Position numbers and translations under genes: made by a program | Source of the DNA: Candidatus Lloydbacteria bacterium RIFCSPHIGHO2_02_FULL_50_18 | GTDB taxonomy: Bacteria; Patescibacteriota; Minisyncoccia; Phycocordibacterales; UBA6899 | Assembly (NCBI GenBank): GCA_001821395.1 | Contig: MHLM01000015.1 | Location: forward strand, 1-64,000 | Direction: 5' to 3' | Length of the DNA stretch: 64,000 nucleotides | Shown here: positions 1 through 21,978 of the stretch, piece by piece | How the letters are laid out: every line of letters begins with the position of its first letter | Numbering within the stretch: position 1 is the stretch's first letter | Notes under the pieces: model-generated | Database searches by the model: none | Seen by the model: the letters and a program-made list of their open reading frames with translations, nothing else | Told to the model about the DNA's origin: nothing

Positions 1-50
1 CTGAAGAGCGCTGTGATGATAAGTAGCGTGATGATAAATACTAATTCCAT
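1..50 (-). CDS. 5' end (first 16 aa, MELVFIITLLIITALF) of a hydrophobic membrane protein that continues beyond the window edge; probably the next membrane subunit of the hyf/Mrp-like operon
   Basis: ATG at 50-48 on the minus strand, preceded by AAGGA. The frame stays open to the window edge. It sits directly downstream of the HyfE-like gene. Confidence 0.3.
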   Translation of the reverse strand, partial: MELVFIITLLIITALF

Positions 51-54
51 GGTG

Positions 55-702
55 TTAATCCTTTAGTTTATTCATTGTGGTGACAATGTTTGATCCAAAT
101 TGCTCATAGATCATCGTTACAAATATCGTGGAGATGATGATCCAAACAAAAATATCGAAGATGATACCGATCTGTAACCCGGGAAATTGTTCAAGTCCTG
201 CAAAAATAGCAAAAACAACGATACTGTTTTCTAGCGATAAAATGCTTATGATCTGCGAAATTGCCTCCTTGCGATTTATGATCATGAAAAGAGAAATGAA
301 TATCCCGGAAAGCGCGATGGCCAAAATACCTTGGTGCAGAGGAATGATGTTCGTCAGCGGAAGTAGTCGCTGCGAGTGCGCCAAGAAGGTCAGCATGGCA
401 ATGACAATAAGCGTGAGCGGCATATTGAGATAGGTGCTTACCGAAAATGACAGTTGATGTTTTTCTATTAACCGAATAAAAAACATCGGGGCGAGGATGA
501 CCTTGATCACAAGGGTGAGCAAAACGAGCAGCAATACATATAAGTTTCTCGTCTCCAGATATGAGCTAAGGAAGATCATCATTACTGCAAAAGACTGTAT
601 ACCGAATACCATCGCTGCCAGATAATTTTTTTTTGTCAGGTTAAGGAAAATGAGGGAGAGAAAAATGAGACCTGCAAAGAACTGTAATATTGAGATATCC
701 AT
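55..702 (-). CDS. HyfE-like (NuoK-related) small membrane subunit of a hydrogenase-4/formate-hydrogenlyase-type complex
   Basis: 215 aa, multi-pass hydrophobic protein. Its size and position downstream of NuoL-like and NuoH-like genes match hyfE. Confidence 0.55.
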   Translation of the reverse strand: MDISILQFFAGLIFLSLIFLNLTKKNYLAAMVFGIQSFAVMMIFLSSYLETRNLYVLLLVLLTLVIKVILAPMFFIRLIEKHQLSFSVSTYLNMPLTLIVIAMLTFLAHSQRLLPLTNIIPLHQGILAIALSGIFISLFMIINRKEAISQIISILSLENSIVVFAIFAGLEQFPGLQIGIIFDIFVWIIISTIFVTMIYEQFGSNIVTTMNKLKD

Positions 703-703
703 A

Positions 704-1633
704 TTATAAGTAGATAAGACCTATTGCCACGGCATTAAGAATAAATGAAACGATCAACAGGTCAGGTAAACGAAAAAATCTGAATTTTGCCATCACTGAT
801 TCAATGACTGCGATAATAGCGGCAAACACACCCAACTTAAGGAAGAAGGCGGATAAGCCGATGATGAGCGCCCCGACCGATTCCGACGCGGCAAGACCTA
901 TTGGAAAGAAGACATTCGCACCGAGCATGAAGAAAATGACCAATTTATTAGCCGAAGCCCACTCCATCAACGCCAATTTTTTTCCGGAATATTCCAATAT
1001 CATTGCTTCGTGGATCATTGTGAGCTCAAGGTGCGTCGCAGGATTATCGAAAGGAAAACGCGCGGTCTCCGCCAGGAGAATGATGAAGAAACCGCTGAAT
1101 GCCAATATGGTTGGAATAAGATATTGCCCGTCAAAAAACAATGTATTACCTGATATGGTAAAAAGATCCGCAGTACCTGTCATGATCGCAATGGTCAATA
1201 AGGAAAAAATAAATCCCCCTTCCGCCAGTGCGGAAAGCGTCATCTCTCGACTTGAACCGAAACCACCGAATGCACTCCCCACGTCCATTCCCGCAAGTGC
1301 CAAGAAAAATGTTCCTATCGCAAGCGTATAGACGATCACAAGCATATCACTCATGAGGTGTGTACTCGAAAAAGAAGAAAATAGTGGAATACTTGCACCC
1401 GCAATGATCGTTACCCCAAAGACAACATACGGGGCTGCGCGAAATATCCAGGAAGCATCACTACTTACAACCTCATCTTTATAGAAAAGCTTTCGGAGGT
1501 CACTATACGGCTGTAATACACTTGCACCATCGCGGTTCTGCAATCGTGCCTTTATTTTTTTTATGATACCAACTGCAAGCGGTGCTACCGACGGTACAAG
1601 TATTATCTGAGTGAGCAAAAAGAAAAGATCCAT
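704..1633 (-). CDS. HycD/HyfC/NuoH-like membrane subunit (complex I subunit 1 family)
   Basis: 309 aa. The N-terminus LVPSVAPLAVGIIKKIKARLQNRDGASVLQPYSDLRKLF resembles the HycD/NuoH N-terminal consensus. About 8 TM helices. Confidence 0.8.
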   Translation of the reverse strand: MDLFFLLTQIILVPSVAPLAVGIIKKIKARLQNRDGASVLQPYSDLRKLFYKDEVVSSDASWIFRAAPYVVFGVTIIAGASIPLFSSFSSTHLMSDMLVIVYTLAIGTFFLALAGMDVGSAFGGFGSSREMTLSALAEGGFIFSLLTIAIMTGTADLFTISGNTLFFDGQYLIPTILAFSGFFIILLAETARFPFDNPATHLELTMIHEAMILEYSGKKLALMEWASANKLVIFFMLGANVFFPIGLAASESVGALIIGLSAFFLKLGVFAAIIAVIESVMAKFRFFRLPDLLIVSFILNAVAIGLIYL

Positions 1634-1639
1634 AAGTTT

Positions 1640-3691
1640 TTACAGTACAACGTATAATGAAATGATCAACGCGATAAAAATATAGGAAATATAGACATTG
1701 ATATTTCCACCTTGAATATTCTTCACTCGTAACGACAAGCCGTTGATCATTGTATTGATCGGTTCATAAAAATACTGTTGATACATATCAATGACATGCA
1801 TTGACACCTTCCCCGAATGTGAAAAATACCTACTCTGCTCATCGTGGTACCTTACCTCACGCTGAAGGCTTGGCTTCAGGACAGACTTAAAGACAAGAAT
1901 GATGGACCGAGCAAAACCGGTTGAAGTAATTTCCATCCGGGGTCCAAGAGTTGTGCCACAATCCCACGTTTTTCCGACGACTATTTTTTGTTTTCTGTTC
2001 ACAAGAAAGCGTACCGATATGACCACGATGCCAAAGACAACCGCGAAGAAACCGAGTATGACGGGGGCGGAGACGCGCGCGAAGCCGTCGGTAAGCAGAA
2101 GTCCGAGTTTTGGGGTAACAGAAACAAAAGACGTCGTAGTGTGAAAAATATCCAAACTTGCCGCGATTTGCTCAAGGAACCTTGTCACATATCCGGAAAA
2201 GATGCCAAAAAAGATAGTAACGATGGAGAGCAACCCCATGGCAACACGCATTGGCATGGCTGATTCCTTTGCGTGCAGGACTTCCCCGCTTCTCGGACGA
2301 GCAAGAAATATCGCTCCAAACGCTTTTGCGAAACACATCAATGCCAGCCCTCCGGTAAATACGAGCGAAGAAGCGGCGAGCACGAATATCCATCTCAACG
2401 AATAATGGAAGCTTGTTATGCCCTGAAACAACGACTGATATGTTAACCACTCACTGAAAAATCCGTTCAACGGGGGCAGTGCGGAGATCGCCATTGAACC
2501 GATAAGGAAGAAGAGCGCAGTCGATGGCATATATTTTATCAGGCCTCCATATTCTTCCATGTTCTTGGTATGTACCTCATTGATCACCGATCCGGCGCTC
2601 AAAAAGAGTAGCGACTTAAAGATCGCATGATTGATCGTATGAAAGAGGGCCGCAATAAAACTGAGCAATGCAAGTGAAGGGACTCCCAGAGTATAGAAGA
2701 TCAGTGCGCTACCAAGCCCAAGCAAGATGATGCCGATATTTTCGATACTGTGATACGCTAGCAACCTCTTAATATCATGCTCAGTAAGTGCATAGAGCAC
2801 TCCAAGTAAAGAAGAGACCGCACCGATGACCAACACTGTCTCACCCCACCACAATGGCACGGGCTGTAGTATGTCGAGGAATAATCTCATCATCATATAG
2901 ATACCGGTCTTGATCATGACACCCGACATGAGCGCAGAAACGTGAGAAGGAGCAGCCGGATGCGCCGCAGGAAGCCAAATATGAAGCGGGATGATACCGG
3001 CCTTTATTCCGAAACCGATCAGCGCAAAAATAAAGATCGCATTTTTGACAGACTGAGGTACAAGCGCTATCCCCGATGCAATAGCTGAAAAGTCAAAAGA
3101 ACCGGTGTACTTATAGAGGAACAAGAAAGCCAAGATAATGAACGCCGTCCCGACATAGGTCATGACGAGATACAGTGAGCCCGCTTTGATATTTGCCGGA
3201 TCGTTGCGATCATAGACAACGAGAAAGTAGGAGGCGATAGACATCAATTCCCATGCAATGAGAAAAAATAATGCATTTGCTGAAGATACGACCAAAAACA
3301 AACTCAGGAAGAGGATGTTATAAAAAAACCCAAGCGTCCCTAGCTGATATTTCCCGTAGTAATGCGTAACGTAACCGAATGCATAGACAGAACAAAAAAC
3401 ACCAATGAGCGAGATCGCAAATATAAAGAATGAAGAAAGTAGATCAACATGAAAAGAGAACGAGAGCAAGGAAAAAGGAGAACTCCCGATCATGAAATCA
3501 TACTCTTTACCCGCATAGATCGCAGCAGATGAAAAACATAACCCGAGAGCTGTGCCAAGTACCGCAAAAGAATTACTCCACCAATTTGTGACTTTGTCAT
3601 TTTTTTGCAAAAAAAGCGAGCCGATCGCGCCTGCTCCGAACAGCGCAAGCGCCGTAAGAAAAAATAGAGGAGAAAGTATTATTGTAAGCAT
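1640..3691 (-). CDS. HyfB/HycC/NuoL-like antiporter-type membrane subunit (NADH dehydrogenase subunit 5 / MrpA family)
   Basis: 683 aa polytopic protein with the conserved NuoL/MrpA-type core (WLPAAHPAAPSHVSALMSG, AYHSIENIG). Confidence 0.8.
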   Translation of the reverse strand: MLTIILSPLFFLTALALFGAGAIGSLFLQKNDKVTNWWSNSFAVLGTALGLCFSSAAIYAGKEYDFMIGSSPFSLLSFSFHVDLLSSFFIFAISLIGVFCSVYAFGYVTHYYGKYQLGTLGFFYNILFLSLFLVVSSANALFFLIAWELMSIASYFLVVYDRNDPANIKAGSLYLVMTYVGTAFIILAFLFLYKYTGSFDFSAIASGIALVPQSVKNAIFIFALIGFGIKAGIIPLHIWLPAAHPAAPSHVSALMSGVMIKTGIYMMMRLFLDILQPVPLWWGETVLVIGAVSSLLGVLYALTEHDIKRLLAYHSIENIGIILLGLGSALIFYTLGVPSLALLSFIAALFHTINHAIFKSLLFLSAGSVINEVHTKNMEEYGGLIKYMPSTALFFLIGSMAISALPPLNGFFSEWLTYQSLFQGITSFHYSLRWIFVLAASSLVFTGGLALMCFAKAFGAIFLARPRSGEVLHAKESAMPMRVAMGLLSIVTIFFGIFSGYVTRFLEQIAASLDIFHTTTSFVSVTPKLGLLLTDGFARVSAPVILGFFAVVFGIVVISVRFLVNRKQKIVVGKTWDCGTTLGPRMEITSTGFARSIILVFKSVLKPSLQREVRYHDEQSRYFSHSGKVSMHVIDMYQQYFYEPINTMINGLSLRVKNIQGGNINVYISYIFIALIISLYVVL

Positions 3692-3692
3692 A

Positions 3693-4289
3693 TTATTTTG
3701 CAGTTAGGGATCTCTTATCCACGACCTCCAGTATGTGCAGAAGCCCGAGCAAAATATCTTTGGGTGAGGGTGGGTCGCCGGGGATATGATAATGAACCGG
3801 GATGACAGAATCCACGCCGTCCATGACTGCATATGAACCCCTGAAGATCCCTCCATCAAGCGCATCATCACCGATCGCTACCACGATCTTAGGTTCCGGG
3901 GTCGCTTCATAGGCGTCCTTGACCGCCGAAGCCATATTTCTTGTAACTGGTCCTGTGACAAAAAGCATATCGGCATGGCGAGGAGAAGCGACAAAATGTA
4001 TACCAAAACGTTCAACATCGTAAAAATTATTCGATAGCGCAACCAATTCCTGCTCGCAGGCATTGTCGGAACCGGCATCAACCTGCCTTATTGCGAGCGA
4101 ACCATGAAAAAGGCGCTTAATATTATCGCGTACTTTTTCTCCCACCTCCGCATACGCTGCATTCGCAATATCCCCAGAGTCTATGCTAATGACATTATTT
4201 GGTGTCTTAATTATTTTGAGAAAAATATTCAACATATTTACCATTATGAAACGTCTAATACACTCGGACGAAATCGCTATCCCCCTCAA
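3693..4289 (-). CDS. NuoB/HycG-like small subunit (group 4 hydrogenase / complex I 20-kDa family) lacking most [4Fe-4S] Cys ligands
   Basis: Aligns along its length to E. coli HycG/NuoB (ERFGIHFVASPRHADMLFVTGPVT, IPVHYHIPGDPP). The canonical Cys positions read A-G-S-D-N-A-C, GDDALDGG and GDPP. Confidence 0.75.
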   Translation of the reverse strand: MRGIAISSECIRRFIMVNMLNIFLKIIKTPNNVISIDSGDIANAAYAEVGEKVRDNIKRLFHGSLAIRQVDAGSDNACEQELVALSNNFYDVERFGIHFVASPRHADMLFVTGPVTRNMASAVKDAYEATPEPKIVVAIGDDALDGGIFRGSYAVMDGVDSVIPVHYHIPGDPPSPKDILLGLLHILEVVDKRSLTAK

Positions 4290-4532
4290 CTATTTTTTCA
4301 GAAAAATCCACACAAATTGAACCCCATACCACAGATACCATGCTAACCATAAAACGAAATATGGTTGCAACTGGTGCAACTAATAGAATAAATATATGCA
4401 ATTTTTAAAATTAAGTCAAAAAATGGACATACTGAAGCCCTTTTCTGCCATTCTCGCTTCAAGAATGAACGGAGTGTCATTAGGAAAAATTGGTCGCGCA
4501 AAGCTCTTCGATTCCTGTTGGAGGAAATTCCA

Positions 4533-4735: not shown

Positions 4736-4825
4736 TCGATCCCCGGGCGGGACTGAGGCAGCTCAGTCCCTCATCCCGACCATATGAAAAAACACCTGAT
4801 GGCGTTTTTTCATATGGTCGGGATG
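4736..4825. repeat. Plus-strand inverted partial copy of the tRNA-Pro 3' half (T-loop through CCA) interrupted by a 9-bp hairpin with a GCAG loop, followed by a 21-bp perfect inverted repeat that includes the real tRNA-Pro 3' end; also a bidirectional terminator
   Basis: ttcgatccccggg (4736-4748). Hairpin gggactgag-gcag-ctcagtccc (4749-4770). catcccgacca (4772-4782). Arms 4772-4792 / 4805-4825 with loop cacctgatggcg. Confidence 0.6.
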
Positions 4826-4888
4826 CCGGGAATCGAACCCGGTTCTTGCGAACCCGAATCGCAAATACTACCGGTGTACTACATCCCG
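4815..4888 (-). tRNA. tRNA-Pro (anticodon CGG), CCA encoded
   Basis: Manual cloverleaf: acceptor CGGGATG/CATCCCG with the C1:G72 pair typical of bacterial tRNA-Pro. Anticodon stem TGCGA/TCGCA, loop TTCGGGT, T-arm CCGGG-TTCGATT-CCCGG. 74 nt. Confidence 0.85.
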
Positions 4889-5300: not shown

Positions 5301-7082
5301 TTACCAACTTCCGCCACCACCGCCACCACCACCGCCTCCCGACATACCTCCCCCGCCCGAACCTCCGCCCGCACTTGCGAACGCAGTGCCCGCACTCGTA
5401 CTAAAGGCCCCCATCGAAGCTGCCAGCGCGGCCGCATTAAACCGTACCCCGCCGCCCTGGTACCAACGTTCGGCATCTTTCTTCGTGTACATGTCCACAA
5501 ACTTTTCCGCCCAGGCTTTCTCGACACCAAAGATCATCGCGTATGGAAGAAATCGTTCAAACGTTTTTGGCTCTTTTTCCGGTGCGTTTGCAAAATCGAT
5601 GCGATCCTTCTCCGCAACGGAGAGATATTCCTTAAACCCCTCGATCTCTTCACGCGCAATAGCACCCTGCTGTGTCCGTTTGCCCATAAAGTATCCGAAG
5701 ACCGTGACGATGACACCTGAAACAATGAGTGCCAAATTCCCGAATGAAAGCAGTGAGCCGATGACTATCAATGCGATACCTGTCAGCACGTAATTCCTCG
5801 TCGTGACCTGCGGATCCGTTTCAAAATAACCCAAAGAGGTGAGATCGACAGCGATGAGCTTTGATAGTTCACTCCTCACATCGACAAACTTGTGCGCAAG
5901 GGTTGATACGAGCACCGTTTCCCCGCTCGCACGAAGCGTATCGTAAAGCATTTTTTCCGGTGCAGTAAGCAGGCTCGTATCAACGCCGGGGAGAAAATGC
6001 AGTCGATGATCTTCGTTTGTGACCAACAGTCTCTTTTTCTTCGTACGCTCGATAGTGAGCAATCCGCGCACGGCGAAGTCGATGATCGCTGCTGATATTG
6101 TTTTGGGCTTGAGATCCGAGTGATACAAATATCCGAGCTCAAGTGTCGTCAAATGCTTCGGTATATCGTATTGCGCGATGATCGTCCCCCGGCCTTTTGG
6201 ATCGCGACCCTTTTTCCACCAGATATTCCACATGACCACGAATACGACAAGCGGTATGAGTGCACTCATGCCAAGAAAATCATTTTTCCACCAGCGATAG
6301 AATCCCACACTGTCTGCGAGTTTTTTCACCGATGACTTTGGAGCAATGAGGAATATGCCCTTCGGTATCCCTACGGCAACGGTCATTCCCTCATTTGAGT
6401 GCAGCGAGCCATCATAGGTAAAACGTACGGAATTGATGATTCCCGTTCCCTCTTGCGGAGTGGACGATGCGGTGCACAATGCAGTGCTTCCCAGGGGACC
6501 AACATAACACGCACTTGAAATACTATTTTCGTTGAGCGGAAGCGGCAGGATCACGTCAGTACGTACTGCGGCGATAGTTTGCTTCCATTCATTCCCCGTG
6601 ACATTCCAATAGAACTCATCCTTGCCTGCCAACCCCTGATTGATCGCACCCCAGACCGTGTAATGAATGACGTAGAGCTGTCTTCCCGTGACCTCAACAT
6701 CAGGGTCGCCGATCTTCAACTCCATATAATTCCCTCCGCCCGAATACTTCGACTCCCGGAGGTTTCCCTTGCCGTCCGTGACCATGATACTTGAGATCTC
6801 TATGCTGCGTGCTGCACGCTCTCCCGGAACGGTGAAAGTGAGCGGAATGCGACGATAGATCCCATGTCGCACTTCACCATCCGGATTAAAACTATAGACG
6901 ATCTCTTCTTGCACGACAGCACTACCGTTCGGTTTCAACTCGATATGCGCAGTGAATGCGTCGATAGAGTCATCCGCGAACGCGAAAAAAGGCGTCAAAA
7001 AAAAGAAAGCAGCACAGACCAGTCGAAGAAACCGATGATCAGTCATTGTCACCGAGCTTCTTTTTAACGTCCTCGAATTCAT
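5301..7082 (-). CDS. DUF2207-family membrane protein (signal peptide, extracytoplasmic domain, TM segments, Gly-rich C-terminal tail)
   Basis: 593 aa. Domain layout and the terminal GGGSGGGGMSGGGGGGGGGGSW tail match DUF2207. The start could alternatively be ATG 7046 (MTDHRFL). Confidence 0.6.
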   Translation of the reverse strand: MNSRTLKRSSVTMTDHRFLRLVCAAFFFLTPFFAFADDSIDAFTAHIELKPNGSAVVQEEIVYSFNPDGEVRHGIYRRIPLTFTVPGERAARSIEISSIMVTDGKGNLRESKYSGGGNYMELKIGDPDVEVTGRQLYVIHYTVWGAINQGLAGKDEFYWNVTGNEWKQTIAAVRTDVILPLPLNENSISSACYVGPLGSTALCTASSTPQEGTGIINSVRFTYDGSLHSNEGMTVAVGIPKGIFLIAPKSSVKKLADSVGFYRWWKNDFLGMSALIPLVVFVVMWNIWWKKGRDPKGRGTIIAQYDIPKHLTTLELGYLYHSDLKPKTISAAIIDFAVRGLLTIERTKKKRLLVTNEDHRLHFLPGVDTSLLTAPEKMLYDTLRASGETVLVSTLAHKFVDVRSELSKLIAVDLTSLGYFETDPQVTTRNYVLTGIALIVIGSLLSFGNLALIVSGVIVTVFGYFMGKRTQQGAIAREEIEGFKEYLSVAEKDRIDFANAPEKEPKTFERFLPYAMIFGVEKAWAEKFVDMYTKKDAERWYQGGGVRFNAAALAASMGAFSTSAGTAFASAGGGSGGGGMSGGGGGGGGGGSW

Positions 7083-13649: not shown

Positions 13650-15044
13650 TTAATGTATTGAAAATTCCTCAGAGTGCACACAGCTCACCGGGACCTGCCA
13701 CTTTGCAAACTGAGACTTGATCGATCTCATCATGGGGGGTGGTCCGCACACAAAGATCTCCTTTCCTAGTAGATTTTTACTTTCGGCCGCAATGGCATCT
13801 GCCGACAAATACCCCTTCTCTACTCCATACCAAGGGATAAGGCGGAAATTCGGATTCGTTGCCGCAATCGAGCACAACTCTTCGTTCCATGCCGCACCCT
13901 CAGATGACATCGCCGAATAATACATATCTACCTTATAGTCGCTCTCTTTGGTCAGACTTCGTGCCATAGAGAGAAACGGTGTGACGCCGATCCCTCCGGC
14001 GATCCATATCTGCTCCTTGCAGGGATAATAGACATATGATGTCCTCCCGAAAGGACCCTCGATAACCGCGCGAGACCCGGGCATTATCCGATTCAATTGT
14101 TTCGTATAATCACCGAGGGCCTTGACTCCGATCGAAAGTTTATCGGTTCCCGGTGACGAAGTGAGCGAGAACGGATGCACTTCCTCGAGTCCCCTGGTAT
14201 CGGGAAATCCGATGAACACAAATTGACCGGGCGTGTAGCTCATCGGTTTTCCGTCCTTGGCATGCATGACGATCTCGACGATGCTCGGATTTATCTGTTT
14301 CACTTCATCAACCACATATTCGCGTCTTGGGATCAACAATGCGCCAAGGATCGTACGATACATGATACTTGCAAAGCCGATGGCCGCGAGAAACCACATG
14401 TAGTACTGAAGTACGGGAGATCGCGTCACATCGCTAGAGACGAAGAGCGCATGAAGCGCGCCGAAGAAAAAAGCGAAACCGAGAAATTTGTGCGTGAGCT
14501 TCCAAGTATGATATGGCAGCTTGATAAAAAAAGTAAGCACGAGAAACAGTATCATGAGGAGAAGTGCAACAACACCGAATAGATATGAGCATTCAGGGTT
14601 AACGAGACTGAACTGCGCAAAACAGAACGGATTTGCAATATAAAGCACATAACTGCTCTTCAATCCGATCGCCCCAAAACCAAGATACTGCGCGACCAAC
14701 AATATCGGATGAACAAGCAGAAGAATGAACGAGACTCCGCCCAAAATATGATGCACGATATACACCCGATTCATGCCGCCAAAGAGACTCTCGAGGAAGC
14801 GGAGGCGCGCACCAAGCACGAGGTTAAGCGCAAACATCGCCATGCCGACCAGACCGAGCGCTTGCCCGAGCGCCTGCATCGTGAGGGAAAAACTAAATGC
14901 TCCATGGCTGATAAAACGCTGATGGAGAGGAAGTGGTGTAAAAAACCAAAAGACGAGCGGAAGGAAGGACAGAAATAGCATTAGTGGCCACCCAAGTTTT
15001 GAGACACGAGGAAATTTCATTGCTTCATTGTAACACCTCACCAA
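13650..15044 (-). CDS. ferric reductase / NOX-like flavocytochrome (ferric-reductase TM domain fused to FAD- and NAD(P)-binding domains)
   Basis: N-terminal polytopic domain with conserved His. HPFSLTSSP (the FNR-type HPFT motif), GGIGVTP and CGPPPM NAD(P)-binding motifs. Confidence 0.7.
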   Translation of the reverse strand: MVRCYNEAMKFPRVSKLGWPLMLFLSFLPLVFWFFTPLPLHQRFISHGAFSFSLTMQALGQALGLVGMAMFALNLVLGARLRFLESLFGGMNRVYIVHHILGGVSFILLLVHPILLVAQYLGFGAIGLKSSYVLYIANPFCFAQFSLVNPECSYLFGVVALLLMILFLVLTFFIKLPYHTWKLTHKFLGFAFFFGALHALFVSSDVTRSPVLQYYMWFLAAIGFASIMYRTILGALLIPRREYVVDEVKQINPSIVEIVMHAKDGKPMSYTPGQFVFIGFPDTRGLEEVHPFSLTSSPGTDKLSIGVKALGDYTKQLNRIMPGSRAVIEGPFGRTSYVYYPCKEQIWIAGGIGVTPFLSMARSLTKESDYKVDMYYSAMSSEGAAWNEELCSIAATNPNFRLIPWYGVEKGYLSADAIAAESKNLLGKEIFVCGPPPMMRSIKSQFAKWQVPVSCVHSEEFSIH

Positions 15045-15520: not shown

Positions 15521-17349
15521 TTATATCCTACTGCCTGGAGGGCAAAAAGTCGTGCGTATTCTCCCCCAAGAGCGACCAGCTCCTCGTGGGTCCCCGACTC
15601 CTTGATCGTCCCGTCCAAGAGTACGATGATCTTGTCAGCGTGCCGCACCGTAGAAAATCGGTGTGAGATAAGGATGACGGTGCGGTCCTTCGGCAGTGCT
15701 TCAAGCTTTTCAAAGATGTGCGCCTCAGATTCGGCATCGACCGAGGCGGTCGGCTCATCGAATATCCATATCCGTGGATCGCGATAAAAGACCCGTGCGA
15801 TGGCAAGCTTCTGTTTTTGCCCAATGGACGGCTCGATGCCATTATCAAACTCTTTCCCCAGTACCGAGTCGTACCCTTTCGGCAGATTCCCGACAAAAGA
15901 TTCGGCCTCGCTTTTCATCGCCGCATCCTCGATCAGGTGCATGTCTTCCGAGCTCGATGAATCACCCAATGCGATCGCTTCTTTGATCGTAAAACTGTCA
16001 TAGGTCGAATATTCCTGAAAGAGCGCGCCGATCATTCCATACCAGCTCTTCTGTTCGACCAACCGCAGGTCTGTTCCATCGACCGTGATCTTCCCCATGG
16101 TGGGGTCGTAAAAGCGCGCGAGCAATTTGATGAGCGTTGTCTTCCCCGCCCCGTTCAATCCGACGATGGCGAGCTTTGTTCCGGCGGGAATATGCAGATC
16201 AATATCGCGGAGGATCGGGGTAGTCGAATCCGGATATGAAAAATCAACATGATCAAATACGATATCGGGCGTCTTAGCGGAGTCCAATATGATGGGGTGT
16301 TCCGCCTCCGCAATCATCCCGGGAAGATCGAGCAGCTTGAACACATCCGTGACGAAAAGATTATCCTGGTACTGGACGCCGAGATTCGAAAAGAACCCTG
16401 AGAGCGACATACTCAGTCCCCCCATCGAGGAAAGAAGGAACACGAAAGTACCGATGGCGATCTCACCGGCGAGCACCTGATGCACGAACCACAACGCAGA
16501 GATACCAATAGTAAGCTGTGCAAAAAATTGGGTTGAGAGCTGAAGCAGTAACTTGTGACGATCTGCACGAATTTGTTCAGACTGAAATGAGGCATACAGT
16601 TCACCGATAAGTGACATGAATTTTTTCACATTCTGGAACAGTTTGAGTTCGATCAGATGTCGCACGTGCACGGTATGCTCCGTAAGTGCCCAGAATCGCC
16701 GCCGACGCGCCGCCCCCGAGCCATAGATACTCCACACCTCTCTTCCGTATTTTATCTCTATATAAAGGCTGGGTATCGTACCGACCACGAGCAAAAGGAG
16801 CAGCCACCACGTCGCATATCCCAATACGACCATAGCGATGATGATCTCAAAAATATTCTGCAAAATGAAAAGTTGACGACTTGCAAAACTCTCCATACGC
16901 CACACACCGCTTTCTTTCACCTTAAGAAAGATATCCTGCAATGCGGGGTCCTCGTGACTGGCAACATCAAGCACGGCCATCTTGGAATACACGAGCATCG
17001 TAAACAATTCCTCAAAATAAAAACGAAATACCTTGTTGTAATACCACTGAAGCGTATAGACGAGCGGGGGCAAGACCTCCGAAAAGATCAGAAACCCCAC
17101 ATACAGCAATATCTCTTTATCGAAAACGCCTTTTCCTACGGCACCCAAAAGATGGTTAATGAGCAGAGCCACTGCGCCCGTCCGCAGAAACGGCATCGCT
17201 GCGCCGAATACATACAATGCACCAACGGAAGTCAGAAGCAATTTTCGTCCTCCCCAGACGATAAGCCAAACACGCTTCATGTTGATGAGCGTTGAGACGA
17301 GCGCAGACAAGCGCAGTGTTTCTTGATGTTCAGGGTTCGATCGTGGCAT
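15517..17349 (-). CDS. ABC transporter, fused permease/ATP-binding exporter (MsbA-like)
   Basis: Six N-terminal TM helices. Walker A GLNGAGKTT, signature SIGQKQ, Walker B IWIFDEPT, H-loop. Confidence 0.85.
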   Translation of the reverse strand: MPRSNPEHQETLRLSALVSTLINMKRVWLIVWGGRKLLLTSVGALYVFGAAMPFLRTGAVALLINHLLGAVGKGVFDKEILLYVGFLIFSEVLPPLVYTLQWYYNKVFRFYFEELFTMLVYSKMAVLDVASHEDPALQDIFLKVKESGVWRMESFASRQLFILQNIFEIIIAMVVLGYATWWLLLLLVVGTIPSLYIEIKYGREVWSIYGSGAARRRRFWALTEHTVHVRHLIELKLFQNVKKFMSLIGELYASFQSEQIRADRHKLLLQLSTQFFAQLTIGISALWFVHQVLAGEIAIGTFVFLLSSMGGLSMSLSGFFSNLGVQYQDNLFVTDVFKLLDLPGMIAEAEHPIILDSAKTPDIVFDHVDFSYPDSTTPILRDIDLHIPAGTKLAIVGLNGAGKTTLIKLLARFYDPTMGKITVDGTDLRLVEQKSWYGMIGALFQEYSTYDSFTIKEAIALGDSSSSEDMHLIEDAAMKSEAESFVGNLPKGYDSVLGKEFDNGIEPSIGQKQKLAIARVFYRDPRIWIFDEPTASVDAESEAHIFEKLEALPKDRTVILISHRFSTVRHADKIIVLLDGTIKESGTHEELVALGGEYARLFALQAVGYN

Positions 17350-17405
17350 ACATACTGAGGCGTTAAGCCTCGACGCTCATTTTAACATATTTAACGCCCT
17401 AGCTG

Positions 17406-17450
17406 TGGACCATAACGGAATCTCCACCTACCGTGGCGGGTGGATTCTCC
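17406..17450. repeat. Degenerate tRNA-Ala 3'-end-like repeat (att-like), diverged copy of the 25096-25140 element, located just past the end of hsdR
   Basis: tggaccataacggaatctccacctaccgtggcgggtggattctcc, compared by eye with tggaccgtacaggaatctcggctaccgccgcgggtgatattc and with the 3' part of tRNA-Ala(GGC). Confidence 0.5.
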
Positions 17451-17469
17451 TACGGAACAATACAAATTG

Positions 17470-19827
17470 CTATTTTACCCCCGCGTACAAACTTCTCTGG
17501 AAATCAAAAAAGGTCGAGCGAATAGCGTCTACATCCCCGAGAATATCCACCGCATCAGCAATAGCGTGATATTTCAAATTGAGCAATTGCGGGAGCTTTT
17601 CTTCGTCGAGCTCCTCGACTCCGCGCTCGACATACTTAGCAAGTACGAACTCAAGAAAATCTTTTTGATCATCATTCAATCCGCCCAAGATTGCACTCTT
17701 GGCACCCAAAACACGATCGACGCGCGAGATTGGCTGTACGCAAAACGAGACATAAGCGAGCACGTCAAACAAATCACTGTTTTCCGCATCGATCATCTTT
17801 TGAAGTATCTCAAGCTCATCCTTCCCATACCCCGCCTCAGCAAGCTTATCGAGAAATACTTTTCTCGTACTTGGATTGGCCCAAATTTCACGAAGCTCAA
17901 CTTCATTCTTATAAAATGAAGGGAGTGCACCGAACATGTTGTTCATAAATTCCTCTACCGAGATCGGCTTCCCATCTGCGCTCCAAAATGAGGTGGAGAT
18001 CATATGCTTTATTTCTCGATCCTTTCCATCCCGCAACTTTATTTTAAGCTTTTGTATGGGTGGAGGCACATCGCACACGCACGGCTTCTGTCCGCACACA
18101 ACGCATGGCGCGGTCGGAGGCTTCACACACACACAGGGCGTCATACCACATGCTGCACAGGGTTGTTTCGGCGCTGGCTCCACTATCGGCTCATCAATGG
18201 GCTCTCCGTCCCACTCAGGGTCAGCGAAGTGATGATACGCATCCACAAAGTCATAGATAGTGAAATACTCCTTTCCGTCAAAGAGCCGAGTTCCTCGTCC
18301 AACGATCTGCTTAAACTCAATCATGGAGTTTACGGGGCGCATCAGTACAATATTGCGAATGTTTCGCGCATCGACTCCCGTCGAGAGCTTTTGTGAGGTA
18401 GTGAGGATGGTGGGGATACTTTTTTCATTATCCTGGAATTCTTTCAAATACTGATCCCCGCGAGCACCGTCATTGGCCGTCACGCGCACACAATAATTTG
18501 GCTCAGTGCTCTCTTTCATCTGATTCACCAAGTCACGCACTGCGAGTGCATGGTCTTGTGTTGCGCAAAAGATAATAGTCTTTTCGTTTTGATTTATCTC
18601 CTCAAGTATGACGCGTACACGCTTCGCCTCACGCTCCTTGATCTCGATGATCTTATTAAAGTCCGCCTCTTCGTAGATTTTTCCTTCCTCCACTTCCCCC
18701 TCGATGATCTGGTCGTCCGAAGTGTACACATAATCATCCATCGTCGTCTTGATACGCTTCACCTTAAATGGCGTCAGAAATCCGTCATTCACTCCGGTTT
18801 TGAGCGAGTAAGTGTATACGGGCTTTCCGAAATAGTTGTAGGTGTCCACGTTGTCTTGCCTGCGTGGCGTCGCGGTGAGCCCAAGGTGTACCGCAGGCGC
18901 GAAGTGCTCGAGGATCGCTCGCCAATTGCTCTCATCGTTCGCACCCCCACGATGACACTCGTCAATAATGATCAGATCAAAAAAGTCCGAGGGATAGTCC
19001 CCGAAATATGGCGAACCATTTTGCCCGCTCATAAAAGTCTGGAATATGGTGAAAAAGATGCTCCCATTTGTGGGCACAGCACCCTTCTTCCGTATATCAA
19101 GTGGATTAATGCGCACAAGTGCATCCTCATGGAAAGCCGAGAATGAATTAAATGCCTGATTTGCTAAAATATTTCTGTCGGCAAGAAAGAGGATTCTCGG
19201 GCGCCTCCCTCCATCTCGCGCCAAGTTCCATCGTGACTGAAAAAGCTTCCACGCGATCTGAAATGCAATAAAAGTTTTCCCCGTGCCTGTCGCAAGCGTT
19301 AGAAGCGCCCGTTGCTTGTTTTCCGCAATTGCATCGAGTGTATTGTTCACGGCAATTTCTTGATAGTATCGCGCACTCTTTGTGCCGTTCATATCCTCAA
19401 ACGGGACAGCGGCAAATTTCTCCTTCCATGCATTTTGGTCAGAATAGACCATGTTCCATAATTCATCAGGAGTCGGGAAACGTTCCACATATTTCTCCGC
19501 ACCCGTCTCCATGCATATCTCGTATATTTCTTTGCCGTTAGTGGCATAGGTATATTTGATCTCAAGTTTCTCAGCATAAGCCTTCGCCTGTGCGACGCCC
19601 TCCGTCGCCGAGAGTCCCTCATGCTTTGCCTCCACAACCCCGATCTTCATGTTTTTATAAACCAAAATATAGTCAGCGATCTCAGGCTTCCCGCGTACTC
19701 CACCAGTCATAATGCGTCCGAGGGTTATGCGAAACTCCCGCAGGACCTTCGATCCCTCGATCTCGCCCCATCCGGCTTCTTTCAGCTTCGGATCAACATA
19801 TTCCGCTCGTGTTTCAGATTCATTCAT
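17470..19827 (-). CDS. hsdR: type I restriction enzyme R subunit
   Basis: N-terminal PD-(D/E)xK (ADYIL...VVEAKHEG). SF2 motifs (LATGTGKTF, DECHRG, TATPRRQ, motifs V/VI). EcoEI-R-type C-terminal domain. Unusual Cys-rich insert at 18067-18159. Confidence 0.85.
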   Translation of the reverse strand: MNESETRAEYVDPKLKEAGWGEIEGSKVLREFRITLGRIMTGGVRGKPEIADYILVYKNMKIGVVEAKHEGLSATEGVAQAKAYAEKLEIKYTYATNGKEIYEICMETGAEKYVERFPTPDELWNMVYSDQNAWKEKFAAVPFEDMNGTKSARYYQEIAVNNTLDAIAENKQRALLTLATGTGKTFIAFQIAWKLFQSRWNLARDGGRRPRILFLADRNILANQAFNSFSAFHEDALVRINPLDIRKKGAVPTNGSIFFTIFQTFMSGQNGSPYFGDYPSDFFDLIIIDECHRGGANDESNWRAILEHFAPAVHLGLTATPRRQDNVDTYNYFGKPVYTYSLKTGVNDGFLTPFKVKRIKTTMDDYVYTSDDQIIEGEVEEGKIYEEADFNKIIEIKEREAKRVRVILEEINQNEKTIIFCATQDHALAVRDLVNQMKESTEPNYCVRVTANDGARGDQYLKEFQDNEKSIPTILTTSQKLSTGVDARNIRNIVLMRPVNSMIEFKQIVGRGTRLFDGKEYFTIYDFVDAYHHFADPEWDGEPIDEPIVEPAPKQPCAACGMTPCVCVKPPTAPCVVCGQKPCVCDVPPPIQKLKIKLRDGKDREIKHMISTSFWSADGKPISVEEFMNNMFGALPSFYKNEVELREIWANPSTRKVFLDKLAEAGYGKDELEILQKMIDAENSDLFDVLAYVSFCVQPISRVDRVLGAKSAILGGLNDDQKDFLEFVLAKYVERGVEELDEEKLPQLLNLKYHAIADAVDILGDVDAIRSTFFDFQRSLYAGVK

Positions 19828-20477
19828 GATGATTGTTTCGCACCATACTGCTTAACTGCCACACCGTCATATCTTTCTTTGAGTCCCTCATAAATAAGAC
19901 TCACGAGGGGCTTATAATCATCGGCATGATCGATTTGCGCAAGCGCCTGACGGTAGCGATTCTTATTTTCCTTTTCTACTTTTATTGATATACCAATTAA
20001 CCCGTAGCGCTCCAAAATCAAATTCGCAGCAAGACGAGCAGTGCGTCCGTTCCCATCCCGAAATGGATGAACGCAGGTGATAGAATAATGCAACCATGCC
20101 GCCAGATGAATAACTCGCTCAACCGTCTGATGGACTTTCGCCATGCTTACATTTTTTCCTCTTATTATTCCCTCTGCTTTATCTAGCGCTTGTAATTTTT
20201 TCTGCAACTCGACCTCCCTTTCGTTCATGAGGTCATTTATTTTTGAGTGATGAGGGGGGACGTGACTTGAGTCTGTTATTTCAAGATTTTCCGTTCTATA
20301 CTTTCCCGCAATATCAGGCCAGGCATCTTTGAATATTTCCCGATGAATTTCCTTGATCGTTTCAATCGAAATACCCTTGTGTGATCGTGCAAATTTTCTT
20401 ACAAAACGAGAAGCGCGGATCACTCCAATCGCTTCTCGTTTTTGTAACTCTTCTTCCGAGCGCGGACACTCTACCAT
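19824..20477 (-). CDS. Fic/DOC-family protein (putative AMPylating toxin, FicT-like)
   Basis: Fic motif HPFRDGNGRTARL. Confidence 0.85.
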   Translation of the reverse strand: MVECPRSEEELQKREAIGVIRASRFVRKFARSHKGISIETIKEIHREIFKDAWPDIAGKYRTENLEITDSSHVPPHHSKINDLMNEREVELQKKLQALDKAEGIIRGKNVSMAKVHQTVERVIHLAAWLHYSITCVHPFRDGNGRTARLAANLILERYGLIGISIKVEKENKNRYRQALAQIDHADDYKPLVSLIYEGLKERYDGVAVKQYGAKQSS

Positions 20478-20485
20478 GGCAATGC

Positions 20486-20680
20486 TTACGCTACTTTTAG
20501 CGCAAGTTTTTCAAATTCCCCGCGATCAAGCTTGCTTCCCTCAAGCGCACTCGAATAATAGGCATGCTCAATATCCCAACTTTTTTCAAGGGCGGATTTT
20601 TGTTTTGGCGTAAGCTGAGAAATCTGTCGTTCTGCAACTTTCTTACTCGCCATTAACTGTACGAGCCGTAGATTCTTCAT
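20486..20680 (-). CDS. FicA/VbhA-like small antitoxin carrying the inhibitory [S/T]xxxE[G/N] helix motif
   Basis: 64-aa ORF. Motif IEHAYYSSALEGS. Its stop lies 9 nt before the Fic ATG, in a different frame. Confidence 0.55.
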   Translation of the reverse strand: MKNLRLVQLMASKKVAERQISQLTPKQKSALEKSWDIEHAYYSSALEGSKLDRGEFEKLALKVA

Positions 20681-20772
20681 GGATATGACTATACCACTAT
20701 TTGACTATTTTACAACTCCTCATGTTTCAGGGGTGACTCCTTGGCCTTGAAAGGTGTCTCCTCGGAAACTGC

Positions 20773-21978
20773 TCACAACTCCCCAGCAAAGGCCTTTTTC
20801 AACACTGATTTTTTAAGCTCCTCAATATCAGCAAGTTTTTGCCCGTAGATTCCTTCAAGTTTTTTTGTCTGCTCCGCAAGCGCATCGAGCTTTTTGACGA
20901 TGGTTTTTTGCTCTGAGACAGATGGAAATGGAAACCGCTCATGCTCAAACGTTGCCATGTTGATATTGGCCTGCGCACTTCCTTTTCCTTTTGCCTGGAG
21001 TACTGCCTTAAATGATTGCAAAAGATACTCGACAAAATTAGTATCTGCAATTTTGGGATTAGCAACAAGTCCGATCACGCTATCAGGAAAACACGCATCG
21101 AAATTCAGAATTCCAGTTTCTGCGATATTCGCCGCAATCGTAATGCAGATAGTTCCTCTCGGCCACAGCTTGCTCTGCGCCAGTCCCGCCTCGCTATACG
21201 ACTGTGAGTACTCCACAATAAAGTGTCCAGAATTTCGAATATCTCCCGTCTGAATAAAGGGGTACTTTCCGCCATAGAGTTTTTTGTCGTTTCTTGGGCG
21301 ATGCTTAGATTTTCCTCTGCCGAATTGCAGGGAGACTTCTTCTAGCGTCTTTTTCTCCCATTTCGAATTTTCAAAAACCCCCTGCAAATACGATTCAAAA
21401 AGTTCGCGGGAATTCTTCAAATTCTTCTCCGCATTCTCCTTCGCCTTCTCCACTCCCTCAAAAACCTCATCAAGAATTTTTACGATGCGCTTTTGCTCGA
21501 TCGCAGAAGGAAAAGGTATCTCAACCTCTTTTAATTTTGTTCCAGAAAGTTCCTTAAAAGTTGTACCACTACCCAAACTATTCAAAAGTTCAACTGAATC
21601 TTTCAAAAAATAATAGAGAAATTTTGTATCAAGATTTTTATTCGGTATTAATCCCTTACACCCCTGATTTGTTGAAATTTCTTTTGTGTTTATCGCCAAG
21701 TGACCAATCGGAGCACGGGTAGACAAAATAATCGAGTTGGGTGGAATGATTTTTGCTGACGACCTTTCTAATCCAGCCTTTGAAATTTTTCGTTCTGTTT
21801 CCTCAACGTATATTTTCCTAAGTCTCCCCATGTCTTTGGGTGTGATCCACAAAATATTTCCATCCCAGTACCTCAAAACGCCCGTTTTAGGAGTTCCTCC
21901 GTTTACAATCTCGCAAACCTCCCCAAGTTTTTTTATTTGCCAGTTAGTTTTCATAGTGAGAAATAATTTGCTTTCCAT
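20773..21978 (-). CDS. hsdS: type I restriction-modification specificity subunit
   Basis: Two target-recognition-domain layout with conserved central/C-terminal helices. TRD motif EIVNGGTPKT. Alternative start ATG at 21954. Confidence 0.85.
   Translation of the reverse strand: MESKLFLTMKTNWQIKKLGEVCEIVNGGTPKTGVLRYWDGNILWITPKDMGRLRKIYVEETERKISKAGLERSSAKIIPPNSIILSTRAPIGHLAINTKEISTNQGCKGLIPNKNLDTKFLYYFLKDSVELLNSLGSGTTFKELSGTKLKEVEIPFPSAIEQKRIVKILDEVFEGVEKAKENAEKNLKNSRELFESYLQGVFENSKWEKKTLEEVSLQFGRGKSKHRPRNDKKLYGGKYPFIQTGDIRNSGHFIVEYSQSYSEAGLAQSKLWPRGTICITIAANIAETGILNFDACFPDSVIGLVANPKIADTNFVEYLLQSFKAVLQAKGKGSAQANINMATFEHERFPFPSVSEQKTIVKKLDALAEQTKKLEGIYGQKLADIEELKKSVLKKAFAGEL

Follow-up and report, generated by a model that had tools for sequence, protein, structure and literature searches.

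What is a hydrogenase- or complex I-type small subunit for when it has lost most of the ligands of its iron-sulfur cluster? The question is raised by a gene close to the start of a 64-kb stretch of DNA from the ultra-small CPR/Patescibacteria organism Candidatus Lloydbacteria bacterium RIFCSPHIGHO2_02_FULL_50_18 (contig MHLM01000015.1, positions 1 to 64,000), the whole of which was analysed and is referred to here as the window. The gene, its ligand sites and the genes that follow it are listed in Table 1.

Table 1. Positions of the small-subunit gene, its ligand sites and neighbouring features in the window.
Feature	Position	Strand	Remarks
Sigma-70-like promoter candidate, TTGACT-17-TATATT	4391..4419	-	10/12 consensus matches; ~150 nt upstream of the start codon
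Small-subunit gene (EhrS / NuoB-HycG family, 183 aa)	3693..4244	-	three of four [4Fe-4S] ligands missing
First ligand motif, D60-N-A-C63	4056..4067	-	
Cys1 equivalent, D60 (Asp)	codon 4067-4065	-	HMMER alignment and codon reading
Cys2 equivalent, C63 (retained)	codon 4058-4056	-	HMMER alignment and codon reading
Cys3 equivalent, D127	codon 3866-3864	-	GDDA instead of GxCx
Cys4 equivalent, D157	codon 3776-3774	-	PGDPP instead of PGCPP
HyfB/NuoL-like antiporter-type membrane subunit, 683 aa	1640..3691	-	PF00361, 199.6 bits; NF005086 (hydrogenase 4 subunit B), 645 bits
HyfC/HycD/NuoH-like membrane subunit, 309 aa	704..1633	-	PF00146, 149.6 bits
HyfE-like membrane subunit, 215 aa, C-terminal part NuoK-like	55..702	-	NF008556, 49 bits, below model cut-off; PF00420 weak
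Fifth gene, HyfF/NuoN-like antiporter-type, first 16 codons	1..50	-	runs off the window start

Small-subunit gene and its ligand sites

The mechanically called open reading frame (3693-4289, reverse strand) was confirmed. Its 5' extension reaches a TTG at 4289, and the ATG at 4244 is the likely start, giving a 183-aa product that agrees with the gene call on the source contig. Analysis of this product with profile models placed it in the PF01058 (Oxidored_q6) family (89.3 bits, Pfam cut-off 27) and outside the NuoB subfamily as delimited by NF005012 (NCBIfam; 114 bits, cut-off 116) and TIGR01957 (106 bits, cut-off 142.7). An AF2 model (mean pLDDT 73.7) was compared with solved structures using Foldseek. 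The best superposition was on MbhJ (6cfw_J; TM 0.81, rmsd 3.2 Å), ranking by E-value put complex I PSST chains on top, and the PSST and MbhJ matches had a probability of 1.00. The model thus confirms that the NuoB fold is retained; its pLDDT fell below 50 over residues 62-76, which form the first ligand loop and helix, and it therefore gives no reliable pocket geometry.

The ligand sites were assigned by residue-level HMMER alignment to the solved MbhJ (6cfw_J, E = 7e-30) and HycG (7z0s_G, E = 2e-29). These alignments paired HycG C48, C51, C115 and C145 with D60, C63, D127 and D157, so that Asp stands in for three of the four cluster cysteines and only C63 remains. The sequence-only reading had described a HycG/NuoB homolog with three of its four cluster cysteines replaced; the alignment to both structures bears this out, and the strings it quoted (SDNACEQE, GDDALDGG and GDPP) are all present in the small subunit.

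The substitutions were shared by more than 120 homologue clusters, and every cluster with a source name came from a CPR lineage. Among the 120 closest clusters (68-100% identity), D.GSDN[AS]CEQE was found in 118 of 121 sequences and GDDA in nearly all, and the last ligand site read PGDPP in 71 and PGNPP in 37. An alignment of 45 small-subunit sequences contained 56 invariant columns. When Cys-poor small subunits were compared, 163/165 had a carboxylate at one, and only one, of ligand positions 2 and 3, as (x, D/E) or (E, G), a rule which indicates that the pocket is under constraint. The former cluster cavity is rebuilt and not simply decayed: it is a conserved, polar and acidic pocket with two or three carboxylates.

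A sequencing or assembly error at the three sites was rejected, since more than 120 independent clusters, as well as several assemblies of the same contig, carry identical changes. The atypical motifs, together with split HyfB genes in a few relatives (L005, L015, L020 and L023), would fit an artefact or gene decay; a pseudogene or decaying hydrogenase remnant is nevertheless extremely improbable, given intact reading frames, the invariant columns and the conservation of the channel residues described below.

We also examined the 570-nt spacer upstream of the gene. A search for riboswitches and known RNAs in this spacer found only a tRNA-Pro, which all sub-threshold matches overlapped. The promoter candidate is a consensus match only, one of 14 such matches in the region against 10.3 expected from shuffling. 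The palindrome GTTGCACCAGTTGCAAC at 4364-4380 was considered as a conserved operator and rejected, as it was absent upstream of 23 related operons.

Operon, relatives and large subunit

The small-subunit gene is the first of a tight operon, followed by HyfB-, HyfC/NuoH-, HyfE- and HyfF-like genes with intergenic gaps of 1-6 nt within the window; the HyfB-like gene starts 1 nt past the small-subunit stop codon. NuoL-, NuoH- and HyfE-like genes had been named downstream from the sequence alone, and profile matches confirmed all three. The PF00146 and PF00361 matches place a NuoH-like and an Mrp/NuoL-type subunit in one operon, the combination expected of an Ehr complex. The window holds 4.1 of the six operon genes, syntenic with those of relatives. 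The N-terminus of the HyfF-like protein agreed with a fragment of 37 codons at the end of the contig and with the HyfF-like gene of relative L007. The contig ends ~110 nt beyond the window start, and all contigs encoding an identical HyfB-like protein stop there or are shorter. The large subunit does lie outside the window, as had been anticipated, and can be seen only in relatives. No Hyp maturation genes were noticed among the annotated neighbours in these 64 kb of genome.

Analysis of the membrane subunits revealed that the full set of charged ion-conducting residues known from complex I, MBH and Mrp is kept in both antiporter-like subunits and in the NuoH-like subunit. The antiporter-like subunits kept the Mrp-type TM5 Glu, TM7 Lys, TM8 Lys/His and TM12 Lys/Glu. 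Equivalents of NuoL E144, K229, H334, H338, K342 and K399(E) were all present in the HyfB-like subunit, those of NuoH R148, E157, R209, D213, E220, E228, K274 and R293 were conserved in the NuoH-like subunit (E-channel), and that of NuoK E36 was conserved in the HyfE-like subunit.

The same six-gene operon was found in 22/22 complete or near-complete CPR-type relatives, in the order small subunit, HyfB-like, HyfC/NuoH-like, HyfE-like, HyfF-like and fused NuoC-NuoD large subunit. The large subunit of one relative matched HycE (E = 1.5e-69), and in the relatives a Gly aligned with the quinone-site Tyr (E. coli NuoCD Y273). The four NiFe cysteines were absent from the fused large subunit in 79/79 Ehr-type loci, 26 of which have a Cys-poor small subunit: L1 RxCGxC is changed to xxSGD[S/T/E/N] and L2 DPCxxC to N[L/C]SY[S/A]G, leaving S/S(T,E,N)/S/G at the four positions and no [NiFe] motif in any of these relatives. 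The B and CD subunits showed ~70% identity across CPR classes, with PVGPxHAGIIEPGHFRF, SGD and NKSFNLSYSG invariant, and the former NiFe/quinone-site motifs were invariant in every Ehr, whether the small-subunit cluster was present or absent. No convincing case was found of convergent basic large-subunit substitutions that pair with the new Asp residues in two independent Cys-less clades. No 2x[4Fe-4S] ferredoxin of the NuoI/HycF type was detected, as judged by ORFs with CxxCxxCxxxC[P/A/G] in 28 scanned operons, and comparison of the operons and their neighbours identified no conserved adjacent redox gene. Taken together, the loss of the NiFe site, the loss of the proximal/N2-type cluster and the lack of an encoded ferredoxin-type subunit leave no recognisable electron path, which rules the complex out as a hydrogenase or a conventional oxidoreductase.

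One could still suppose a genuine [NiFe] hydrogenase whose functional small subunit is encoded in another part of the genome, because the contig end leaves this genome's own large subunit unseen. It is nonetheless about as improbable as gene decay: none of the four NiFe cysteines is present in the large subunit of any relative, and the 64-kb window contains no second PF01058-like gene, nor a paralogue of any other operon subunit. The gene is very probably the small subunit of a CPR/Patescibacteria-type Ehr complex that has lost its cofactor sites. All same-operon relatives encode an Ehr-type large subunit, and we infer from their sequences that the window's complex would have one as well. An Ehr-like, non-hydrogenase identity had been suggested at the outset, and it now has the support of the relatives' operon, the loss of the NiFe cysteines, the lack of a ferredoxin and published work on CPR (PMC7304191).

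Large subunits of the CPR type formed one clade in a neighbor-joining (NJ) tree (bootstrap 100/100). The named homologue matches are CPR lineages. Cluster loss mapped to at least two Ehr clades with separate support (NJ bootstrap 100/100 each), while monophyly of all Cys-less sequences received 0/100, and the rest of the complex was conserved in both clades. The cluster thus appears to have been lost independently in at least two Ehr clades, one of them in Methanosarcina, with active-site motifs unchanged, a number of losses that comes from a simple NJ phylogeny, which could mislead.

Proposed ion translocation and competing functions

The best overall explanation, to which we assign a probability of roughly 55%, is a cofactor-free Ehr of the CPR type that acts as a redox-independent, Mrp-like ion translocator. 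The mechanism itself, gradient-driven ion translocation independent of redox chemistry, is put at slightly below even odds on the sequence evidence. The complex would probably swap H+ for another cation, or otherwise interconvert ion gradients, as an Mrp antiporter does, with the cofactor-free B/CD cap kept as a structural or gating module above the NuoH-type channel. The complex would act together with the F1Fo ATPase; in these fermentative CPR organisms, which lack a respiratory chain, ATP hydrolysis by that enzyme probably generates the proton gradient.

Mrp-like ion translocation had also been raised by the sequence-only reading, and this part stands in a restricted form: the conserved channel residues point to such a function, whereas by composition the complex is not an Mrp antiporter. 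Like this complex, Mrp has two antiporter-like subunits with a Glu/Lys/His chain, a NuoK-like subunit and no redox cofactors. In contrast, Mrp comprises seven subunits (MrpA-G, including MrpB/E/F/G) with no peripheral arm and without NuoH, NuoB or NuoD homologues, and the six genes here encode only HyfB/C/E/F-, NuoB- and NuoCD-like proteins. With no MrpE/F/G, a NuoH-like subunit that Mrp lacks and a cofactor-free peripheral cap, the analogy is only partial. A further point against the transport mechanism is that the conservation of B/CD seems to exceed the needs of a passive cap, a hint that the former active site may have a specific ligand or reaction of its own.

The extreme conservation of the large-subunit pocket across all Ehr also counts for a complex that is still a redox enzyme, in which the Asp/Cys pocket would bind another metal centre (mononuclear Fe, Mn, Zn or a non-standard cluster) or an unlinked partner would feed electrons to the SGD/His/Tyr site of the large subunit. 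The replacements are non-random, being carboxylates and amides typical of hard-metal ligands (D/C/D/D here, D/x/D/N elsewhere), and docking of formate dehydrogenase modules has been proposed for other Ehr types (PMC6349859). The ligand set is variable, however: D alternates with N at the fourth position (71 versus 37), Gly can occupy position 3, and sister clades replace the sole Cys by E, A, T, P, V or I. A [4Fe-4S] cluster held by a single Cys ligand or by none is not known, electron-transport chains and quinones are generally missing from CPR genomes, and no redox gene is conserved beside the operon. A redox function of this kind is therefore considered unlikely.

Slightly less likely again is a peripheral pocket formed by B/CD/H that binds or converts a non-redox substrate, such as a lipid head group, CO2/bicarbonate or a small metabolite, and thereby drives or gates ions, making the complex a chemically driven pump or a ligand-gated channel. 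The invariance of the former NiFe/quinone-site motifs in every Ehr, with or without the cluster, is in keeping with this, and at least two independent cluster losses without motif loss suggest that the core Ehr function does not depend on electron transfer. Cyanobacterial NDH-1 variants that couple CO2 hydration to the complex provide a precedent. Set against these points, no candidate substrate was found, the operon contains no conserved accessory catalytic gene and there is no recognisable hydrolase or lyase signature.

Comparison of the flanking genes revealed an F1Fo ATP synthase operon upstream and on the same strand in 7/19 CPR-type loci whose upstream flank spanned at least 2 kb (L006, L011, L012, L014, L015, L016 and L027, from several subclades), at a distance of ~0.35-1.65 kb in six loci and ~5 kb in L014; in L020 the atp operon lies downstream. 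This synteny was seen only in the CPR type, as no non-CPR locus had an adjacent ATP synthase operon, and no ATP synthase genes were found within the 64-kb window. In L006, the c subunit of the neighbouring ATP synthase lacks the Q/E-S-T motif that we take to mark Na+ specificity and looks H+-specific, so that it lends no support to Na+ coupling. Recurrence of the same-strand synteny in several CPR subclades would suit a complex that serves the ATP synthase in a regulatory or accessory role, for instance by sensing the PMF or providing a regulated proton leak, instead of acting as an independent transporter. This is a rather improbable reading, as more than half of the loci, including the window, are not beside atp genes, and the membrane subunits contain complete antiporter-type channels, which would be excessive for a sensor.

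Read more broadly, the complex could be a naturally cofactor-free member of the complex I/group 4 hydrogenase superfamily that keeps the full B+CD cap and H, transfers no electrons, works as an ion exchanger or ligand-gated pump tied to the F1Fo ATPase and is core to the management of membrane potential in bacteria that have no respiratory chain. We put this forward tentatively, with more confidence than the redox and substrate alternatives and less than the transport mechanism.

Known complexes and implications

Hydrogenase-derived complexes whose large subunit has lost the NiFe ligands have precedents in MBX and MBS. In Pyrococcus, MBH and MBS (6cfw, 6u8y) carry three [4Fe-4S] clusters (MbhJ/MbsJ, MbhN/MbsN) and a full Mrp-type Na+ module, neither of which is present here, although among solved structures the small subunit matches MbhJ of MBH (6cfw) best. 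E. coli hydrogenase-4/formate hydrogenlyase-2 (HyfABCDEFGHI) and FHL-1 (Hyc; 7z0s) gave the best sequence matches for every subunit and share the fused NuoC-NuoD-type large subunit. Compared with these systems, the complex lacks the HyfA/HyfH ferredoxins, HyfD, the formate dehydrogenase partner, the NiFe ligands (in relatives) and, in the small subunit, three of the four cluster ligands. NuoB/PSST/Nqo6 of complex I belongs to the same Pfam family and has the same fold, the small subunit being ~30-35% identical to PSST chains, but the tandem-Cys/Cys/Cys ligands of N2 are absent here.

The closest parallels are known Ehr and the rhizobial hyq-type complexes, which have the same set of HyfB-, HyfC-, HyfE- and HyfF-like proteins, a NuoB-type small subunit and a NuoC-NuoD-type large subunit without NiFe cysteines, and which share the large-subunit motifs SGD and N[L/C]SYSG. 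In contrast, the small subunit of non-CPR Ehr relatives (55 compared) has all four cluster cysteines, three of which are Asp here. The hyq-like type places the small-subunit gene last and the CPR type places it first, and the NuoB-NuoI fusion of some published Ehr (PMC6349859 supplement) does not occur here.

The function of Ehr has been described as unknown (PMC10284858, PMC10432482). A CPR-specific Ehr clade was already known from the large subunit, as a monophyletic subclade without metal-binding cysteines (Jaffe et al. 2020, PMC7304191). The loss of the small-subunit cluster, the remodelling of its site into an acidic pocket, the at least two independent losses within Ehr and the synteny with ATP synthase were not found in the searchable literature. 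Full-text searches for Cys-less NuoB-like Ehr subunits also found nothing; a mention in Marreiros et al. 2013 BBA or Coppi 2005 Microbiology is possible.

Current labels such as 'NADH-quinone oxidoreductase subunit B', 'Ni,Fe-hydrogenase III small subunit' and 'formate hydrogenlyase' are unsuitable for these genes, and CPR-type Ehr genes should not count as evidence for H2 metabolism. A conserved ion-translocating complex that often lies beside ATP synthase is relevant to the old question of how CPR bacteria, which lack electron-transport chains, keep up a membrane potential and ion homeostasis. Ehr complexes are widespread, in CPR, nitrifiers, Geobacter, rhizobia and methanogens, and independent cluster losses with invariant active-site motifs suggest that the core function of all Ehr may not be redox-driven. 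A variant free of redox sites in which strong selection preserves the whole coupling machinery would amount to a natural dissection of complex I-type coupling, separating the apparatus for ion translocation and conformational change from electron transfer.

Small subunit and its operon in the window

Positions 1-4289 of the window's minus strand form a compact operon with intergenic gaps of 1-6 nt. The small subunit matched PF01058 (89.3 bits against a cut-off of 27) and the other operon products PF00361, PF00146 and, weakly, PF00420. NCBIfam identified the 683-aa protein as hydrogenase-4 subunit B (645 bits) and pointed to HyfE for the 215-aa protein, with a score below that model's cut-off; the small subunit scored marginally under the NuoB-subfamily cut-off (114 versus 116). 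Its ATG start is also the one annotated on the source contig, which stops ~110 nt past the window start, so the large subunit of this genome lies off the contig and cannot be read. Between the operon and tRNA-Pro lie 570 nt of spacer that contain a single promoter-like site, and an Rfam search of this spacer found no element. A palindromic repeat directly downstream of the promoter-like site was not found upstream of 23 related operons.

Features of the window
Feature	Coordinates	Strand	Remarks
Fifth gene, first 16 codons only	1-50	-	matches HyfF-like gene of relatives
HyfE-like	55-702	-	215 aa
HyfC/NuoH-like	704-1633	-	309 aa
HyfB-like	1640-3691	-	683 aa
Small subunit (mechanical ORF)	3693-4289	-	183 aa counted from ATG at 4244
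Palindromic repeat	4364-4380	-	GTTGCACCAGTTGCAAC
Promoter-like site	4419-4391		
tRNA-Pro	4815-4888		upstream of operon
DUF2207 membrane protein	5301-7082	-	long Gly-rich tail at end (GGGSGGGGMSGGGGGGGGGGSW)
NOX/ferric-reductase-like membrane flavocytochrome	13650-15044	-	Ferric_reduct, FAD_binding_8, NAD_binding_1
Type I restriction-modification system	17470-24606	-	HsdR, HsdS, HsdM
Shedu SduA_C-domain gene	21944-23113		between hsdS and hsdM
Three tandem tRNA-Ala	24562-25562	-	anticodons GGC, CGC, UGC; ~420-510 nt apart
AcrB-type RND transporter	50454-53564	-	722 bits to PF00873
AcrB-type RND transporter	57313-60552	-	544 bits to PF00873

The cluster ligands were located by HMMER alignment to the solved structures of Pyrococcus furiosus MbhJ (6cfw_J, E = 7e-30) and Escherichia coli HycG (7z0s_G, E = 2e-29). 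The reference motif S-C-N-G-C-E/D reads S-D-N-A-C-E here, with Cys1 replaced by D60 and Cys2 retained as C63; G-A-C reads G-D-D (Cys3 to D127) and P-G-C-P-P reads P-G-D-P-P (Cys4 to D157). The sequence-only reading had claimed that three of the four cluster cysteines are replaced, and the alignments to MbhJ and HycG bore this out, leaving C63 as the single ligand Cys.

More than 120 homologue clusters with 68-100% identity to the small subunit were retrieved from 5.8 billion proteins. Every source-named cluster was from Patescibacteria/CPR (Magasanik-, Moran-, Kaiser-, Nomura- and Staskawiczbacteria, Paceibacterota), and database labels varied between NuoB, formate hydrogenlyase and Ni,Fe-hydrogenase III small subunit. 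The motif D.GSDN[AS]CEQE was present in 118/121 homologues and GDDA in nearly all; the fourth site read PGDPP in 71 and PGNPP in 37. An alignment of 45 small subunits contained 56 invariant columns (mean column identity 77%). The AF2 model (mean pLDDT 73.7) superposed on MbhJ with a TM score of 0.81 and an rmsd of 3.2 Å, and its top Foldseek matches were all PSST/NuoB/MbhJ/HycG chains. Sequencing error and pseudogene decay were excluded by the conservation of the motifs across these clusters, the invariant columns and the intact reading frames.

Large subunit and operon of CPR relatives

The comparison covered long contigs from Moranbacteria (L003), Magasanikbacteria (L005, L006) and Nomurabacteria (L007), together with 80 loci of GTDB species genomes (L009-L088). 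This analysis revealed one recurring six-gene operon, the CPR type, in the order small subunit, HyfB-like (~683 aa), NuoH-like (~310), HyfE-like (~215), HyfF-like (~480) and fused NuoC-NuoD large subunit (~525). The Nomurabacteria large subunit aligned to E. coli HycE (E = 1.5e-69), with HycE RvCGiCgfaH reading kiSGdSsfsY and DPCYSC reading NLSYTG. When 79 large subunits were aligned with E. coli HyfG (reference sequences from the MG1655 record), the four NiFe-cysteine positions were S / S, T, E, N, M or A / S / G in 79/79. In the 28 operons scanned, no ORF carried the ferredoxin motif CxxCxxCxxxC. With the NiFe cysteines of the relatives absent and no ferredoxin ORF, the complex is therefore Ehr-type by definition and not a hydrogenase, in support of the non-hydrogenase, Ehr-like module proposed from sequence alone. 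Near-invariant motifs common to all Ehr large subunits were PVGPxHAGIIEPGHFRF, SGD and (V/I)PDFPLINKSFNLSYSGNDL; where E. coli NuoCD has its quinone-site Tyr, the alignment shows Gly.

Several loci departed from the standard arrangement. In a Kaiserbacteria locus (L009) the large-subunit gene is followed by a seventh gene (17217-18695), which encodes another antiporter-type subunit resembling HyfF. Some assemblies (L005, 10545-12595; L015, L020, L023) had the HyfB-like gene broken into two or three ORFs; it was split in L005 but intact in the near-identical L006; these splits could be frameshifts, assembly errors or occasional decay. CPR-type contigs L013, L021, L022 and L024 were binned as Syntrophus, Thermoleophilia and Bdellovibrionales MAGs, and could be mis-binned CPR contigs or products of lateral transfer.

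Jaffe et al. 2020 (PMC7304191) found the large subunits of CPR to be monophyletic within Ehr; these are without metal-binding cysteines and 'likely cannot interact with H2'. The small-subunit analysis in that study concerned group 3b enzymes only. The small subunit probably belongs to this already known clade, and we put the probability that it is a CPR Ehr small subunit with lost cofactor sites at about 0.9. Ehr complexes are described as of unknown function, with a suspected coupling of redox chemistry to ion translocation, and some have NuoB-NuoI fusions or formate dehydrogenase linkage (PMC6349859, PMC10284858, PMC10432482, 10.1101/765248). The full texts searched contained no statement of an Ehr small subunit without its cluster; the founding Ehr papers (Coppi 2005; Marreiros et al. 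2013) lay outside that scope and may mention it.

Cluster loss within Ehr and the remodelled pocket

Tabulation of the columns of HycG C48, C51, C115 and C145 across 88 loci gave 55 with all four cysteines (CCCC) and 33 Cys-poor. The CCCC loci (rhizobial hyq-like clusters, Acidobacteria, Chloroflexi, Nitrospirae and others) had the same subunit set and NiFe-less large subunit as the Cys-poor loci; of the six of their operons inspected, four had the small-subunit gene at the end and one had it at the start. When 1.84 billion cluster representatives were scanned without a profile, the best 150 included 97 CCCC and ~25 Cys-poor sequences.

The Cys-poor loci fell into three groups: the CPR clade (DCDD as in the window, DCDN, TCDD, TADD, DADD, DAEN, SEGD, TEGN), a small TEGD/TEGE clade, and a DTDN/DPDN clade from Methanosarcina, Methanosarcinales, Methanomicrobiales, Dehalococcoidales and one 'Moduliflexus' MAG. 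The last (L028, L029, L030, L057, L079 and L049, from the complete genome of Methanosarcina sp. Mfa9, NZ_CP195119.1, 1971921-1992391) keeps the small-subunit-last order, has no cluster cysteine and looks like an independent loss. Each group was recovered in 100/100 bootstrap replicates of a large-subunit neighbour-joining tree, a single clade of all Cys-poor loci in 0/100, and CPR plus TEGD in 9/100. Because of this pattern, the tree, although a simple method, indicates that the cluster was lost at least twice inside Ehr.

The pocket was tallied in 165 distinct Cys-poor sequences, which are related and hence not an independent-sample statistic. Exactly one carboxylate occupied ligand position 2 or 3 in 163/165, arranged as (C/A/T/P/V/I, D/E) or (E, G); both positions were never carboxylates, and neither was in only two sequences. 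Position 1 was D, T, S or N, position 4 was D, N, E or S, and 161/165 had two or three carboxylates over the four positions. The position 2/3 swap occurs in separate clades. The one-carboxylate pattern speaks for remodelling of the vacated cavity into a conserved pocket of acidic, polar character, and against its degeneration; the pocket could hold a cation or water, form a salt-bridge network or provide a proton path. No convergent basic substitution pairing with the new carboxylates was found in the large subunit. A non-standard Fe-S cluster is very unlikely, given that the retained C63 is dispensable in sister clades and position 4 alternates between D and N.

Channel residues, ATP-synthase synteny and proposed mechanism

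Channel residues were compared with E. coli proteins. Equivalents of NuoL E144 (TM5), K229 (TM7), H334/H338, K342 (TM8) and K399 (Lys or Glu, TM12) were kept in the HyfB-like subunits of the window and relatives and in the relatives' HyfF-like subunits, with H338 in the L009 HyfF-like subunit as the single exception. The NuoH-like subunit retained R148, E157, R209, D213, E220, E228, K274 and R293, with E216 changed to A/S and E218 to H in nearly all Ehr examined; the NuoK E36 equivalent was present in the HyfE-like subunit.

Of the 19 CPR-type loci whose upstream flank was 2 kb or longer, seven had an F1Fo ATP synthase operon upstream on the same strand (L006, 2534-9816; L011, L012, L014, L015, L016, L027), spanning subtypes DCDD, DCDN, TADD, TCDD, DAEN and TEGD in Magasanik- and Falkowbacteria. 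The gap was ~0.35-1.65 kb in six loci and ~5 kb in L014; in L020 the atp genes were downstream. No non-CPR locus had an adjoining atp operon, and no atp genes were found across the 64 kb of the window, where the operon's neighbours are DNA-repair, restriction-modification and transporter genes with no redox partner among them.

The flavocytochrome, ~9 kb upstream, is among the few nearby redox proteins and does not accompany the relatives' operons. Elsewhere, the Shedu gene nested in the hsd system and the low GC (0.42) of that stretch suggest a small defence island. Two AcrB-type RND transporters sit in this apparent CPR genome. Across 1-64000 the minus strand carries all family-assigned ORFs, and the cumulative GC skew declines monotonically, as would fit one replichore with strong gene-strand bias.

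The complex is without a NiFe site, small-subunit cluster ligands or a ferredoxin subunit. Its antiporter-type and E-channel residues are intact, strong purifying selection acts on it, and a link to atp genes recurs. With no electron path, a redox reaction presumably could not drive ion pumping. The simplest function fitting the conserved channels would be gradient-driven translocation, as Mrp-like H+/cation exchange or interconversion of gradients, a mechanism we put forward tentatively and at slightly less than even odds. The cofactor-free B/CD cap (small subunit plus NuoC-NuoD) would then act on the NuoH-type channel as a structural or gating element, and the complex would work alongside an ATPase responsible for the proton gradient of these fermenters. 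The main counter-argument to this mechanism is the extreme conservation of the former active-site region, which would be compatible with a metal bound there or with a mechanism driven by a ligand or a reaction.

Four features appear to be new and together merit experimental follow-up: the small subunit without its cofactor, the acidic pocket conserved in it, the separate cluster losses in other parts of Ehr, and the synteny with the ATP synthase. The repeated loss of the cluster with retention of the motifs suggests that Ehr function in general may be independent of electron transfer.
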